Under the pieces are notes generated by a model that searched no databases, was not told the origin of the DNA, and saw only the letters and a list, made by a program, of their open reading frames with translations. This document shows positions 43,780 to 63,993 of a DNA stretch of 64,000 nucleotides, piece by piece; position 1 is the first letter of the stretch, and every line of letters starts with the position of its first letter. This stretch comes from a virus (lineage: Duplodnaviria; Caudoviricetes), in IMG/VR virus record IMGVR_UViG_3300024249_000006, positions 2,880 to 66,879 of that record; one strand, given 5' to 3'. Made by a program: the position numbers and the translations under genes.

Positions 43780-44306
43780 TCATTCCGGCGGCACGTAATC
43801 GGGCGGCGGATAGACGGACAGGCCGCCGACGTCGATGCCTTGCTCGCGCAGGTGCTTCGCGATGTCATCGCCGAACGCCTCGTGCAGCTGCAGCAGCATC
43901 TTGGCGTGCTCGACCGGGAACATGGCGATCACCCGGCTCACATCGCGCGGCAGATGCTGCAGCACGGCGCGACGCAATGCCTTGACGCCATCAGCAGTTT
44001 TGATGGCTGCTTCGATCGCCTCATCGGTGAGGCGCCGATCCTCGGTCCGGATCTCTAGCAAGAGGCAGAACGTGTGTTTCTCGGCCATCAGTGCATCGAG
44101 CCTTTCTGCTGCAGCGACGCATGCACGGAGAGCACCTTGGAGTTGTGATCCATCAGGAACCTGTTGACCACGTAGGGGTCCATATCCCGCACCATCAGGC
44201 CCATAGCGAGCGCCAGGATGTGCAGCATGTCGCCGCAGGAAACCTGCTCCTGCTTGGCGCGATCAACGATCACGGTGACCGCGTCGACTATCTCTTGTTC
44301 GTCCAT
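43780..44306 (-). CDS. Two small hypothetical proteins (43780..44088; 44088..44306)
   Basis: Coupled; 44306 start follows an AGGTAGG RBS just downstream of the array. Confidence 0.55.
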
Positions 44307-44330
44307 CCAGGCACCTACCTTCCCCAAAAG

Positions 44331-44926
44331 ACAGCAACCCGGCTGGGCAAGCGTGACCTGCCCAACCGAGCCCTGCCCGGCGCGACCTCGACGGGCGCGC
44401 CACGCCGGTCCTTAACCGCCGCGACGACACCAGAACGAACCCGGCCTAGCCGGGCCCGGCCCCGCGCCGTCTAGCCGCGCCAAGACCGCCACACCGTTTC
44501 CGGCCAAGCCCCGACATGACGAACCAAACCCCGGTTCCCCTTGCCGCGACCGCCATACCAGACCGGACCCGGCCAAGCCCCGGAGCGCCCCGCCACGGCA
44601 TGCGTTGCCAAGCCAGGGATTGCCCAGACCGCCACACCGCGTCTAGCCGCCGCCATGCCCGGCCACACCCAGCCAGCCTCGCCTAGACCGCCATGCATGG
44701 CCTTGCCAAACCGGGACGGGACTTACCGTGCCGCGGCCAGACCACGACCGCCGATCCGAGCCTCGCCCTGCCGAAACGAGCCTAGCCTTGTCCGCACCAG
44801 GACCGCCGCGCCTGCGTCTCGCCGTACCCTGAACGGGCCTCGCCGAGCCGCGCCGTTCCATGCCGCAACGCACCTTGTCTCGCCGCGTCACGCCCAGCCA
44901 AGACCGCCGTGACATCCAGCGCCGCA
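44331..44926 (-). ncRNA. Non-coding (GGY-NN)n pentamer array with GGCGGTC delimiters; candidate guide-RNA array
   Basis: Plus-strand GACCGCC at 44484, 44548, 44627, 44686, 44746, 44801, 44902 (AACCGCC at 44414); 5-nt periodic NN-RCC between them; lies just after the RAMP operon. Confidence 0.8.
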
Positions 44927-45391
44927 TCAAGCCGTAACCTGTTGCGCGCGCCCCGAGAGCTGCTCCACCTGGAAGTGCAGCTGCTCGACCTCCCTGCCCA
45001 TGCCGATCGCGTGCGCCACTTCCTTGGCCCGCCGTAGCGCGGCCAGCGCCCGATCGAACTCCGCCAGCAACACCTCGCGGGCCAACTGCTCGTCCGTGCG
45101 CAACCGAGCCGTCGAGATGTAGCCCTGCAGGGGCGCCATCGTCGGATCCCGCACGAACATCGGCGCCTTGACGACGAACGGGCTGACCGTCAGCACATAC
45201 TCGTAGCTGGCGATCAAGGTCCGCGCTTCGTCGAGCCGCCACGAGGCCGCAGCCTTGCGATCGTCCCAGGTGAAATGACGATGCAGTGGCGATCGGGGCG
45301 ACTTGGCCGCAGCGACGACCTCGTTCGGCGTCAGTCGCCCCTTATTGCGAGCAGCGATTGCATCCAGAGCTCTACGTGCTCTGTCGTTCAT
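44927..45391 (-). CDS. 154-aa helical accessory protein coupled to the RAMP gene
   Basis: ATGA overlap with the RAMP stop; LTPNEVVAAAKSPRSPLHRHFTWDD..A..WRLDEARTLI. Confidence 0.8.
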   Translation of the reverse strand: MNDRARRALDAIAARNKGRLTPNEVVAAAKSPRSPLHRHFTWDDRKAAASWRLDEARTLIASYEYVLTVSPFVVKAPMFVRDPTMAPLQGYISTARLRTDEQLAREVLLAEFDRALAALRRAKEVAHAIGMGREVEQLHFQVEQLSGRAQQVTA

Positions 45392-46224
45392 GCCGCTTCG
45401 TCCAGCTCTGGCTCATCCTCGTGGCCTGGGATCTGCGCCCCCTTGGCCTCGCGGCCGAGGCGGATGAGCTCCGCGCTGTATTCGGCCAGCTGTTCCTGCG
45501 ATTCATCATCGTAGCAATCGAATTTTTCGAGTGCGCGATCCTGTGCTGCGCAACCACCCTCGCGGATGATCCGCTTGTAGTCTGCGTCAGTGGCACGGCA
45601 GAGCCGGAATTGCCCAAAGCTGCCGCTGCCCTTCTCCTGGCGCCAATCACCGATGCCGCAGAGGATGCCGCCGGCGTGCAACAGCGTGGCAATCTGCTTG
45701 GCTGTCATCAGCGGTTGCGCGAAGCGAATCGTCACCTCACAGCACCATTCAGGAATGATCGCGCGCGTACGGATGTCCGGTGTCTGCTTGATGTCGGCTG
45801 ACCGCACGACCGACATCAACAGCTGCGGCACGCCGTAGATGTCGACGAATTGGCCCGGCACCCAGATGCGTCGGCCAACGCTGGTTTTGGTCGCGCCCGG
45901 CATGTCGAGCGCGGCCGTCTTGATCGAGCCCTTCAGTGCTGAGGCCGGAAAGCGCAGTCGTGTCGGCGGGTTCGGTCCCGAGTTGCGATAGACCGATGAA
46001 CGATATTCTGCTGGCGGATTGTGCTTGACGTTGGCAGCGCGTTCCGCGGCATTTTTCGGTGCTGAGCCCATCAGCAGGCTGCGCTTCGCCTTCTCTGACA
46101 TTCGATTGAAGATCAACGGCGATGTGCCGATGATCCAGAACTGCACTGAGCCTTCTGATAGTTCGAGGATCTTGGCCTCGGTGACGACCTTGCCTGCGCT
46201 TTTCTGTGCTGGTGCTCTTGCCAT
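45388..46224 (-). CDS. Stand-alone RAMP-superfamily (Cas7/Csm3-like) protein
   Basis: IIGTSPLIFN (beta1), FPASALKGSIK (cf. IPGSSLKGALR), C-terminal Gly-rich loop GIGDWRQEKGSGSFGQF; CAGGAG RBS. Confidence 0.8.
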   Translation of the reverse strand: MARAPAQKSAGKVVTEAKILELSEGSVQFWIIGTSPLIFNRMSEKAKRSLLMGSAPKNAAERAANVKHNPPAEYRSSVYRNSGPNPPTRLRFPASALKGSIKTAALDMPGATKTSVGRRIWVPGQFVDIYGVPQLLMSVVRSADIKQTPDIRTRAIIPEWCCEVTIRFAQPLMTAKQIATLLHAGGILCGIGDWRQEKGSGSFGQFRLCRATDADYKRIIREGGCAAQDRALEKFDCYDDESQEQLAEYSAELIRLGREAKGAQIPGHEDEPELDEAA

Positions 46225-46567
46225 TTGTGCTTCTCCTGTCCGGTAGGATTGGCGTTCAAGTCATGCAGTCTCCCGCAATAGATCAGTCTCTTCCTGGGCT
46301 CCCCCAGGCGGTTTTGGCGGCATGAACGGCGGCAGCATGTCGACACGATCGTTGACATACTGCAGCACGCGACGCCGCTGCGGCACCGGCATGGCTTGCA
46401 GGATCGCCATGATGCGCCGGATATCGTAGAGCTCGTGGTCCCTCGCGCGGCCCATCAGCGCAGCACCAGCAGCGCAGTGCTGGCCGCTACAGCCAGGGCG
46501 AACAGCGCGAGCGCGCCATCGGTCCGCCAATCACGCAATGCTCGTCGCAGTCGTCGCTGTTTGTTTG

Positions 46568-47884
46568 TCATGCGCTGACACTCCTGAGTTCTGCCGCCTT
46601 CGCCTTCTCGGCATTGTTGATCCGCTGCGCGAGTTCCGGTCGCTCCATCAGCAGCCGCTTGGCCAGGGTCTGCAAAGCGGTGCCACCGGTCGCCATCTTC
46701 AGTTGCACCTCGGTCTTGGCTGCTGCGATGTCGGCGAGGATCTGCTCGGTCCGCTCCAGATCTTTGTCGGGAGCCCGCTGCTGTCCCTCGTCGACCGGCG
46801 TGTCACTTTTTGCCGTCTCATTTGAGGGCGGATCGGGGTTGCAACGTTTCCAGCTGGCGTTCAGCGCCGCGTTGATCTCCTTCGCCATCTCGGGCCGCTT
46901 CTCGACGAACCAGCGCAGCGCGTCCTGCACCTCGTCCAGTGCGATGAGGGCGTCATGATCCGCCGGCGTCGTGGTGGCGTTGAACCGCGCGATCAGCTCA
47001 TCGGCCTTGGCGCGGTTCTTCGCCTCGCCGCGCAGCTGCGTGGACTCAGACTGAGTCCTGGGTGTGGACTTTGGTGGCGGCGGGGCAGGGGCCTCGCCGC
47101 GTGCCTTGGCGGCGATCGCCGCGCCCACCGCCTCATCGAGCGGCCGGTTCAGCGGGATCAGGTGCGCGTCCTGCGCATCGAGCTTGATCGGTACCGGGAA
47201 GCCTCGCGGATCGATGTCCGGGTGCTTCACCGGATCCAGTGGATACAACATGAACGACATGGTCATATCGAACATGAAGTCGCTGCCACACACCGGTTGC
47301 AGGCCGCCGTCGACCCACTCGGTTTTCTTCGGATCGTCCTTCTTCGGTCGGATGATCAACTTCGGCTCGGCGCGCAGGCAGCAGATCACATGCATATTCA
47401 GCTGTATGAACCGCTGCAGCATCGACTTGTGCGCGCGCTTCGGCTTGATCCAGGCGGTGCCCTTCACCCGTTCGCGCCGGTCCCAGTAGCCCCTGGCATC
47501 GGGGTCGCCGGCGAGCCGGTTGAGCTCATCCTCCATGCGCTCGAGCACTCCGCCGGGCCCGACGTGCTCATGGCTGACGCTGTCGAGGATCAATACTGCG
47601 GCGCCCATCTTCTGCGCCTGCTCGGCAGCGGCTGTGTATTTCTCGCTGATGAACGGCGGGTAGATGCTGCAGTGCTGGAATTCGAATTGCCCGGCATAGC
47701 GTCGGCCGCGATTGTTCTCGGTGTCAGCGAAGAAGATCTTGCCCTCTGGTCCAGCGAGCCCGCGCGCCAGGCGCAGTGCTGACATGGTTTTCCCAGCGCC
47801 TGTCGGGCCGCAGATTGCGATGAGATAGGTCTCGGCGCCCTGTACCGCTGGCGCATAGATCAGCTCTTGCGGCGCGTCAGGCAT
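46568..47884 (-). CDS. Sak4-like AAA ATPase/recombinase
   Basis: GPTGAGKT Walker A, ADTE, LILDSVSHEH..GGVL, VICCLRA. Confidence 0.85.
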   Translation of the reverse strand: MPDAPQELIYAPAVQGAETYLIAICGPTGAGKTMSALRLARGLAGPEGKIFFADTENNRGRRYAGQFEFQHCSIYPPFISEKYTAAAEQAQKMGAAVLILDSVSHEHVGPGGVLERMEDELNRLAGDPDARGYWDRRERVKGTAWIKPKRAHKSMLQRFIQLNMHVICCLRAEPKLIIRPKKDDPKKTEWVDGGLQPVCGSDFMFDMTMSFMLYPLDPVKHPDIDPRGFPVPIKLDAQDAHLIPLNRPLDEAVGAAIAAKARGEAPAPPPPKSTPRTQSESTQLRGEAKNRAKADELIARFNATTTPADHDALIALDEVQDALRWFVEKRPEMAKEINAALNASWKRCNPDPPSNETAKSDTPVDEGQQRAPDKDLERTEQILADIAAAKTEVQLKMATGGTALQTLAKRLLMERPELAQRINNAEKAKAAELRSVSA

Positions 47885-60597: not shown

Positions 60598-61053
60598 AGC
60601 GCCTTAAGATCGAGGCACGCATCACGCTCGCGTATCATCATCTCCCTCCGCACGCGGCCGACCTCCAGCAGAGGCAGATCCCCGCTGGCGTTTCCGAATT
60701 GGCGGTCAGCGAGACGGCGTGCCGCGCGCTGGAACTCGTCGGATGTTACGCAGCCAGAGCCGCGAGATAGGGCTAGCGATGGGTCAGGATCCGGGGTTAC
60801 GCCAGCAGAGCCCCACACAATGAGCGCCAGCACGCCACCAAAGATACAAGCCGCCCCGATCCCGATCTGGCCTCCTAACGAGGTCGTGGCAGAGGGCGCT
60901 CCTGAATGGCCCATTCTAACTGGCCCGGTGTCCACCAGCTTGGTTGGAGCACGCGGAGCATCGAGCCCCGAATGGCCCATTCTAACTGTCGTGTTGTTCA
61001 TAGTTTCAATCCTGATAGCCGCTTGTGGGGGTGATAGCCGCATGTCGGGGGAG

Positions 61054-63639: not shown

Positions 63640-63842
63640 TGGGGGATGTCCCTCTAAATCGGGCGAGGCATGATCGCCTGCACCGCAGGAATTACATGGC
63701 GCATAATGCGCCGCAGTTCAAGTTCTAAATCGATCCGGATAGCCGCATGTCGGGGGGTGTTCCGGATAGCCGCGCGTGGGGGGTTCTTCGTGATAGCCGC
63801 TTGTAGGGGGGTGGGATCCTGATAGCCGCTTGTAGGGGGGGC

Positions 63843-63993
63843 GCCAGGGTCGGGCCCATGGCGTGCCTGTCGCCAGGGTCGGGCCCATGGCGTGCCTGTC
63901 GACCAGGGTCGGGCCCATGGCGTGCCTGTCGCCAGGGTCGGGCCCATGGCGTGCCTGTCGACCAGGGTCGGGCCCATGGCGTGCCTGTCGACC
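63843..63993. repeat. Tandem 29/30-bp repeat (G[A]CCAGGGTCGGGCCCATGGCGTGCCTGTC), 5 copies
   Basis: Identical units alternating GCC/GACC starts, running to the window end. Confidence 0.95.

Follow-up and report, generated by a model that had tools for sequence, protein, structure and literature searches.

On the minus strand of an uncultivated tailed phage, a gene for a single Cas7-like RAMP protein is coupled to a small second gene and followed by a G-rich tract with a five-nucleotide rhythm. The question raised by this locus is whether the three elements constitute an RNA-guided system outside CRISPR-Cas and, if so, which genes it may address. Such a system had been proposed in the original prediction for a 64-kb stretch of DNA (here called the window), which was taken from an IMG/VR virus record of 66,879 bp (CheckV completeness, 100%). 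We conclude, with a probability of about 0.9, that the locus is a VIPR (Viral Interference Programmable Repeat) system in a complete HK97-type tailed phage genome. It is not a new class of system; its kind was already published in April 2026 (bioRxiv 10.64898/2026.04.26.720920). What goes beyond the VIPR papers is an explicit GGCG/GTC junction between guide units (the slash marks the point of division) and predicted targets in head-morphogenesis genes, of which the proteases of gene transfer agents (GTAs) are the most notable.

VIPR consists of Vipr, an ancestral single-RRM RAMP, together with a vap accessory gene and vrRNAs of 9 to 16 YNNGG repeats, and it comes in seven types (bioRxiv 10.64898/2026.04.26.720920). 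In the published mechanism, one protomer occupies each repeat and the NN bases are directed to double-stranded DNA with every third base skipped; the exemplars of type II are Escherichia phage SUSP1 and a Pseudomonas fulva prophage (VIPR papers, bioRxiv 10.64898/2026.04.26.720920, 10.64898/2026.04.26.720927, and 10.64898/2026.10.15.759431). Rival phages, satellites, and other VIPR systems are reported to be silenced at the level of transcription, and the skipped bases of published targets fall on codon wobble positions (bioRxiv 10.64898/2026.04.26.720920). The original prediction had noted a resemblance to VIPR, and the VIPR papers describe the mechanism that it had sketched. Its model of a lone Cas7-like RAMP on a (GGY-NN)n RNA, with GGY held and NN exposed, corresponds to the published one, and the protein, the gene order, the array, and the behavior of the natural targets reported here all fit it.

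A Vipr-type protein and its coupled partner

The locus is read leftward and comprises vipr (45388..46224, minus strand), encoding a 278-aa Cas7-like single-RRM RAMP; vap (44927..45391, minus strand), encoding a VIPR accessory protein of 154 aa and joined to vipr by an ATGA overlap; a pentamer array of about 500 nt; and a terminator hairpin. The three-part leftward unit of the original prediction, with its ATGA coupling and its GGY-NN array, was thereby recovered in full on the minus strand. The plus strand of the phage (G+C content, 65%) carries the genes for the large terminase, the portal, an HK97-type major head protein, minor tail proteins, and tail fibers. An early operon that includes an exonuclease gene and an ATPase-like gene occupies the minus strand, and the vipr-vap-array locus lies inside it, adjoined by phage recombination and replication genes. 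The absence of a CRISPR context held for the complete record: neither a Cas1 match nor a CRISPR-like repeat family was found in the whole 66.9-kb phage genome.

No Pfam family matched the 278-aa protein, which belongs with PHROG 4652, a family of unknown function (E value of 7.5e-14). Its nearest solved folds are Csm3/Cas7 of type III, of type VII, and of Cas7-11, in agreement with the fold that had been anticipated, and its fold is that of Cas7/Csm3. Among all PDB chains, the sole match at the sequence level was the SUSP1 Vipr protein (36pp_D), with an E value of 3e-4 when the single sequence was searched and of 9e-5 when a profile of 40 family sequences was used; the similarity covers only about 50 residues, and the SUSP1 protein has 202 aa in comparison to 278 aa here. 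In the alignment, C189-G-I-G-D193-W194-R195 falls on C173...D177-W178-R179 of SUSP1 Vipr and R154 falls on R138; the two proteins have a G-loop motif (CGxGDWR) and a thumb arginine in common. SUSP1 Vipr recognizes GGY through its RRM sheet, the G-loop (D177, W178, and R179), and the thumb (R138) (VIPR papers, bioRxiv 10.64898/2026.04.26.720920, 10.64898/2026.04.26.720927, and 10.64898/2026.10.15.759431). R154, G190, G192, D193, and R195 were invariant in the alignment of 40 family sequences. The phage protein is a single-RRM RAMP of the Vipr type, in which the GGY-gripping residues of SUSP1 Vipr are retained. The Cas7 structure 6ifn_E served the VIPR authors as the query by which VIPR was discovered (bioRxiv 10.64898/2026.04.26.720920); unlike the loci of Cas7/Csm3 backbone subunits such as 6ifn_E and 6xn3_F, the phage locus lacks a CRISPR array, the genes cas1, cas2, and cas10, and a second RAMP gene.

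The 154-aa Vap matched PHROG 15946 (E value of 5.5e-12). Pfam gave only weak helix-turn-helix (HTH) hints for residues 3 to 39 (E values of 0.1 to 0.2). The structure model of the mostly helical protein (pLDDT of 86.6) combines a helical domain at the N terminus with a helical hairpin at the C terminus. A Foldseek search of the PDB returned no match at an E value of 0.001 or better, and the hairpin resembles generic hairpins only; a profile search of the PDB yielded coiled-coil noise, which leaves the N-terminal domain effectively outside these fold searches. No nuclease family was matched by Vap.

A protein search collected 742 members of the Vipr family; relatives are encoded on 401 viral contigs, and the family also occurs on 57 bacterial genome contigs, many of them alphaproteobacterial; the closest relatives were P0001 (81% identity), P0002, and P0003. 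Linkage was counted in 80 viral loci fetched from the 401 contigs. A vap homolog lies directly downstream of vipr in 73 of these loci. Pentamer runs, called wherever at least 9 of 12 consecutive pentamers showed GG in one phase, were present on the vipr strand in 70 of the 80 loci and on the opposite strand in none (0/80). Nearly all of the runs are situated directly downstream of vap, with a few between the genes or just upstream of vipr. The linkage of homologs to same-strand arrays, which had been named as a check of the proposal, is conserved across relatives, and no further conserved partner gene besides vap was seen among the 80 related loci.

Pentamer array and unit junctions

The G-rich tract begins directly at the vap stop codon. 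Nowhere else in the 64-kb window is the period-5 Fourier power as high, and the autocorrelation of G peaks at lags of 5, 10, 15, and 20. A dynamic-programming parse split the array into 89 in-register pentamers with G at position 1 in 93%, G at position 2 in 72%, and C or T at position 3 in 94% of the cases; positions 4 and 5 (NN) have an entropy of 1.96 to 1.98 bits and include all 16 dinucleotides. A perfect GGY was found in 57 of the 89 pentamers, compared to about 9% expected from composition, and the run is unique in the 66.9-kb genome when both strands are checked. The array was originally given as about 600 nt long. It is real and starts at the vap stop codon as described; the pentamers, however, end near position 44416, and the rest of the tract is a structured 3′ end. 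This 3′ end (44326..44416, minus strand) has an RNA fold energy of -65 kcal/mol (z-score of -4.3 versus shuffled sequences) and contains a terminator-like hairpin of 17 pairs (44372..44336), followed by a T run (GCTGTCTTTT). A hammerhead-interspersed array was rejected because an Rfam scan of positions 44000 to 46600 at E values up to 1 gave no match.

The motif GGCGGTC occurs seven times in the array (at positions 44908, 44807, 44752, 44692, 44633, 44554, and 44490), which account for 7 of the 27 copies that the minus strand of the window contains, and the variant GGCGGTT stands at 44420. Read in the pentamer frame, the junction is GGCG/GTCNN: the last pentamer upstream (GGCGG) and the first one downstream (GTCNN) share one G. 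A leader (44904..44926, minus strand) extends from the vap stop codon to the first junction, and the junctions delimit seven vrRNA units, all on the minus strand. Unit 1 (44803..44904) holds about 19 repeat units, two of them of 6 nt; units 2 (44748..44803) and 3 (44688..44748) are bounded by GGCGGTC on both sides; in unit 4 (44629..44688), the register is broken by one 4-nt unit and one 6-nt unit. Unit 5 (44550..44629) has 15 in-register pentamers, and units 6 (44486..44550) and 7 (44416..44486) have 12 each. The junctions are spaced by 101, 55, 60, 59, 79, 64, and 70 nt; spacings other than 5k+4 arise because single 6-nt or 4-nt units lie inside the vrRNAs. Related loci also contain multiple copies of GGCGGTC (14 in L029, 34 in L003, 11 in L039, and 7 in L035). 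In L003, 27 of the 33 spacings equal 5k+4, which is what an overlap of 1 nt per unit predicts.

An array of seven units with GGCGGTC joins and overlaps of 1 nt fits a staggered, tail-less architecture. "Staggered arrays," in which vrRNAs overlap by 1 nt, are sketched in the legend of fig. S18 of the VIPR discovery paper with the type unnamed, and this architecture is absent from the list confirmed there by small-RNA sequencing (bioRxiv 10.64898/2026.04.26.720920). The locus shares with the type II exemplars a two-gene vipr-vap operon in a phage with a GGY-NN array downstream, and a GDWR-containing G-loop and a thumb arginine for holding GGY. It differs from these exemplars in that the array has no room for a conserved 3′ tail or a pseudoknot between units, in that the units abut at GGCG/GTC with an overlap of 1 nt, and in that position 2 of the pentamer is relaxed (G in 72%).

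By analogy to the VIPR papers, the array would be transcribed leftward together with vipr and vap up to the terminator, and the transcript would be cut at GGCG/GTC into about seven vrRNAs, neighbors of which share one G. One Vipr protomer would then occupy each pentamer, sequestering GGY and presenting NN, and the resulting filament would read double-stranded DNA as NN-x-NN-x and repress its transcription. Compared to Cas7/Csm3 of class 1 CRISPR-Cas systems, the step would be 5 nt rather than 6 nt, three of five guide bases would be sequestered, and the target would be double-stranded DNA read with a gap. Like TldR (PMC13418256), such a system would be a phage-borne, nuclease-free, RNA-guided DNA binder that represses chosen genes; TldR, in contrast, is a single TnpB-derived protein with contiguous pairing, whereas Vipr is a RAMP filament.

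Predicted targets in head-morphogenesis genes

For the target search, in-register units were converted to NNx patterns, exact seeds of eight pentamers were searched in IMG/VR, and matches were extended locally. The searches of large collections used the 1-nt-skip rule only. Under this rule, the gapped-pattern search suggested in the original prediction placed two of the seven units, units 1 and 6, above shuffled controls, and we regard these two as having convincing targets.

Unit 1 matched a 4.4-kb contig of 66% G+C (L261) at 28 of 30 NN bases over its first 15 pentamers and at 32 of 34 (94%) once the comparison was carried past a 6-nt unit. In the same loci, the best shuffled-NN control scored 23 of 30. 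About 2e-6 matches of 32/34 would be expected by chance, an analytic estimate that assumes about 1e11 positions in the viral collection. The matched stretch belongs to a major capsid gene of the HK97 family (TIGR01554), in whose frame it encodes the peptide YWVAENTAITASDPQTD; all of the skipped bases are third (wobble) positions of codons. The seed from pentamers 1 to 8 of this unit retrieved only related capsid genes with 21 to 23 of 30 matches and did not extend beyond chance.

The 3′ seed of unit 6 was found in 87 contigs, compared to 10 to 45 for the other seeds. In 72 of 80 fetched contigs, the match extended to 21 to 23 of 24 NN bases (23/24, or 96%, in 12 contigs, 22/24 in 37, and 21/24 in 23), while shuffled-NN controls reached at most 19 of 24 in the same loci. 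All of these matches are in frame at the motif A[I/L]DGLSIGFRTV of an HK97-type prohead protease, with the skipped base at the wobble position. One target contig, L292, carries GTA_megatron (NF048004; 1,662 bits), the GTA baseplate hub TIGR02218, and TIGR02217. GTA-specific tail genes were present in 31 of 81 target loci; most of the others are short contigs, with capsid proteins 53 to 98% identical to that of L292. The proteases of GenBank phages are all less than 55% identical to the targeted one. As judged by their sequences, the target contigs of unit 6 are RcGTA-like gene transfer agent clusters. The seed from pentamers 1 to 8 of unit 6 did not extend beyond chance. The unit 6 pattern had no match with up to three mismatches in the five genomes holding L103, L104, L106, L112, and L115, and none with up to two mismatches in a sample of 401 genomes from the class to which G001 belongs, the genome with the Bradyrhizobium locus L115.

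In the fetched loci, no match of units 2, 3, 4, or 7 exceeded the shuffled controls; for unit 7, the comparison covered these loci and the phage's own genome. In five contigs that are nearly identical to each other, the gene for a DnaB-like helicase matched the 11 pentamers at the 3′ end of unit 5 at 21 of 22 NN bases (24 of 32 overall). The seed from pentamers 8 to 15 gave only this partial match, a weak candidate that is not claimed as a target. The seeds from pentamers 1 to 8 and 9 to 16 of unit 5 did not extend beyond chance. No perfect target was found in the collections searched, and the exact full-length patterns of units 1 and 6 had no match in metagenome contigs. Self-targeting was not seen either: the best score in the phage's own genome was at the level of shuffled controls. 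The targeted capsid protein has no kinship with that of the phage itself, and no protease with the targeted SIGF motif is encoded in the phage genome.

A screen of the guides from all fetched VIPR loci returned two further matches. A guide of L014 matched a second site of the same L261 capsid gene at 22 of 24 NN bases (TVAYSKGNVQVR), and a guide of L077 matched the conserved thumb motif RSADMNKTPDIR of other vipr genes at 23 of 24. Both matches are in frame with the skipped base at the wobble position. None of the controls for this screen reached 22 or more in a first run, and few did so in a second. All of the four independent guide-target pairs are thus in frame with the skipped base at the wobble position. 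This pattern agrees with the type II exemplars, in which targets also lie in coding sequence with the skip at the wobble position and self-targeting is absent; as in these, rival mobile elements are the predicted targets, to which relatives of the locus add other vipr genes. What differs from the exemplars is the kind of gene predicted to be addressed by this phage, namely genes of head morphogenesis, one of which belongs to gene transfer agent clusters. The predicted role of the locus would be to silence the genes by which competing HK97-type elements in its host build their heads. Unit 1 would be directed to the major capsid gene of a rival phage and unit 6 to a prohead protease that belongs either to an RcGTA-like gene transfer agent or to a phage whose head module is of that kind. 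DNA binding and silencing of rival phages had been put forward in the original prediction as the output; the VIPR papers describe such an output, and the pattern of natural targets found here fits it.

Alternative readings and implications

Could the RAMP gene be left over from a class 1 CRISPR-Cas system in degenerate or orphan form, as a stray Cas7 whose crRNA is encoded elsewhere and which stands beside an unrelated pentamer tract? Its nearest solved folds, Csm3/Cas7 of type III, type VII, and Cas7-11, speak for this origin. We give it hardly any credence, however: a repeat-spacer array and further cas genes, as accompany Cas7 in class 1 systems (type III/IV-like), were not found near the gene, the genome lacks Cas1 and any CRISPR-like array, linkage of the pentamer tract to the gene, strand included, recurs in 70 of 80 relatives, and SUSP1 Vipr, rather than any Cas protein, is the one solved structure matched at the sequence level. 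We also consider it very improbable that the tract acts as DNA, as iterons or as protein-binding sites for replication, partition, or regulation, and that the target matches arose by chance. Such a role would be in line with the finding of targets for two units only and with the lack of a perfect target; the strict strand polarity of the runs (0/80 on the opposite strand) and the terminator directly after the array argue against it, as do the 32/34 match (about 2e-6 by chance, analytic, assuming about 1e11 positions), the four in-frame guide-target pairs with the skip at the wobble position, and the lower scores of shuffled-NN controls.

A third possibility accepts the locus as a true VIPR system and changes its output to target destruction or abortive infection, with Vap as a nuclease or a recruiter of one. 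Predicted nucleases are reported by the VIPR paper for some types (types III to V). Nevertheless, we consider this output unlikely: Vap is a mostly helical protein of 154 aa that matches no nuclease family and has weak HTH hints only, the relatives have no other conserved partner gene, and the viral context suits the silencing types. We therefore retain the reading of the locus as a silencing VIPR system. It unites sequence kinship to Vipr, a cas-free vipr with one vap, and a viral context with adjacent YNNGG/GGY-NN pentamers in at least four units (conserved GGY and variable NN) and, for units 1 and 6 under the 1-nt-skip (NNx) code only, with targets that match at least 80% of the NN bases in the absence of a self-target.

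Natural VIPR targets are known in detail from very few clades (SUSP1, P. fulva, and types III and V). The locus adds a clean example of a staggered array from an uncultivated high-G+C member, GGCG/GTC provides a concrete candidate processing signal, and the targets under the published code fall in head-morphogenesis genes of HK97-type elements. It is possible, and put forward here tentatively, that unit 6 silences the prohead-protease gene of the host's RcGTA-like gene transfer agent. Gene transfer agents are mentioned neither in the three VIPR papers nor elsewhere in the literature searched on vrRNA. The guide sits on a protein motif that is conserved across GTA clusters, and it reads codon positions 1 and 2 only, so that synonymous drift cannot escape it. 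If the proposal is true, VIPR would be aimed at a domesticated, chromosomally fixed phage relic, beyond rival phages and satellites, and the phage might in this way stop lysis driven by the GTA, avoid cross-interference between capsids, or block a GTA-linked defense during infection. Host-inference searches returned only distant portal and capsid relatives from mixed Proteobacteria; an alphaproteobacterial host is suggested by the GTA target and by the G+C content. The GTA-protease target, if real, would link RNA-guided phage warfare with GTA biology in Alphaproteobacteria and would itself be a pointer to the host of the phage.

Guide matches to vipr, capsid and helicase genes

In the relative IMGVR_UViG_3300020577_002625, the first vrRNA 3′ of the Cas7-like RAMP gene vipr (L077:1206-1265) was found to match the vipr genes of other loci at 23 of 24 NN bases (e.g., target L113:1854-1889). 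The target site in these genes is the conserved thumb motif RSADMNKTPDIR, on which the guide lies in frame, with the wobble position as the skipped base. Judged from sequence matching, the pairing of this guide with the vipr genes of other loci constitutes predicted VIPR-against-VIPR targeting. The window's own vipr (45388..46224, minus strand) would show only a 19/22 match to the guide (hand count), partly because its serine codon is TCA and not AGC.

A guide of a second, independent VIPR array, accompanied by a Vipr of 51% identity, matched an HK97-type major capsid gene (L014:5326-5385; 22/24, minus strand of L261, peptide TVAYSKGNVQVR). Unit 1 of the window matches the same capsid gene at a different site; therefore, the arrays of this clade converge on one capsid family.

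For unit 5 (window 44550-44629), the candidate target is a DnaB-like helicase gene. The eleven 3′ pentamers of this unit matched the part encoding the N-terminal domain (KMLGAGFRPLI) at 21 of 22 bases in near-identical phage contigs of 57% G+C (L202, L206, L211, L213, and L214), and the four 5′ pentamers displayed no match at the helicase site in these five contigs. The helicase gene may represent a partial or drifting target, or the match may have arisen by chance.

Array architecture and flanking sequences

The staggered vrRNA array of another relative (IMGVR_UViG_3300005329_000048, L003:5431-7640) is very long: it covers 2.3 kb and has 34 GGCGGTC junctions, spaced mostly 49 to 69 nt apart.

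Directly 3′ of the window's array terminator lies a small ORF (44088-44327, minus strand) without a family match. Its start codon is likely the ATG near 44306, which is preceded by a putative ribosome-binding site (GGGGAAGG), rather than the listed TTG.

Close to the genome's right-hand end (window 63815-63991 and 61010-61052 / 63734-63840), repeats of 29-30 nt form a tandem array, and a 24-nt motif (TGATAGCCGC-TGT-GGGGGG) occurs in six scattered copies. Neither is CRISPR-like.

Vipr relatives in cultured actinophages

Distant relatives of the window's Vipr (28-34% identity), annotated as hypothetical proteins, are encoded by 32 cultured actinophage genomes in GenBank, including Gordonia phage Pipp (MN234179.1:32486-33088) and Mycobacterium phage BobaPhett (NC_051636.1:38216-38824). 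For laboratory work on this Vipr branch, these phages could be tractable models.
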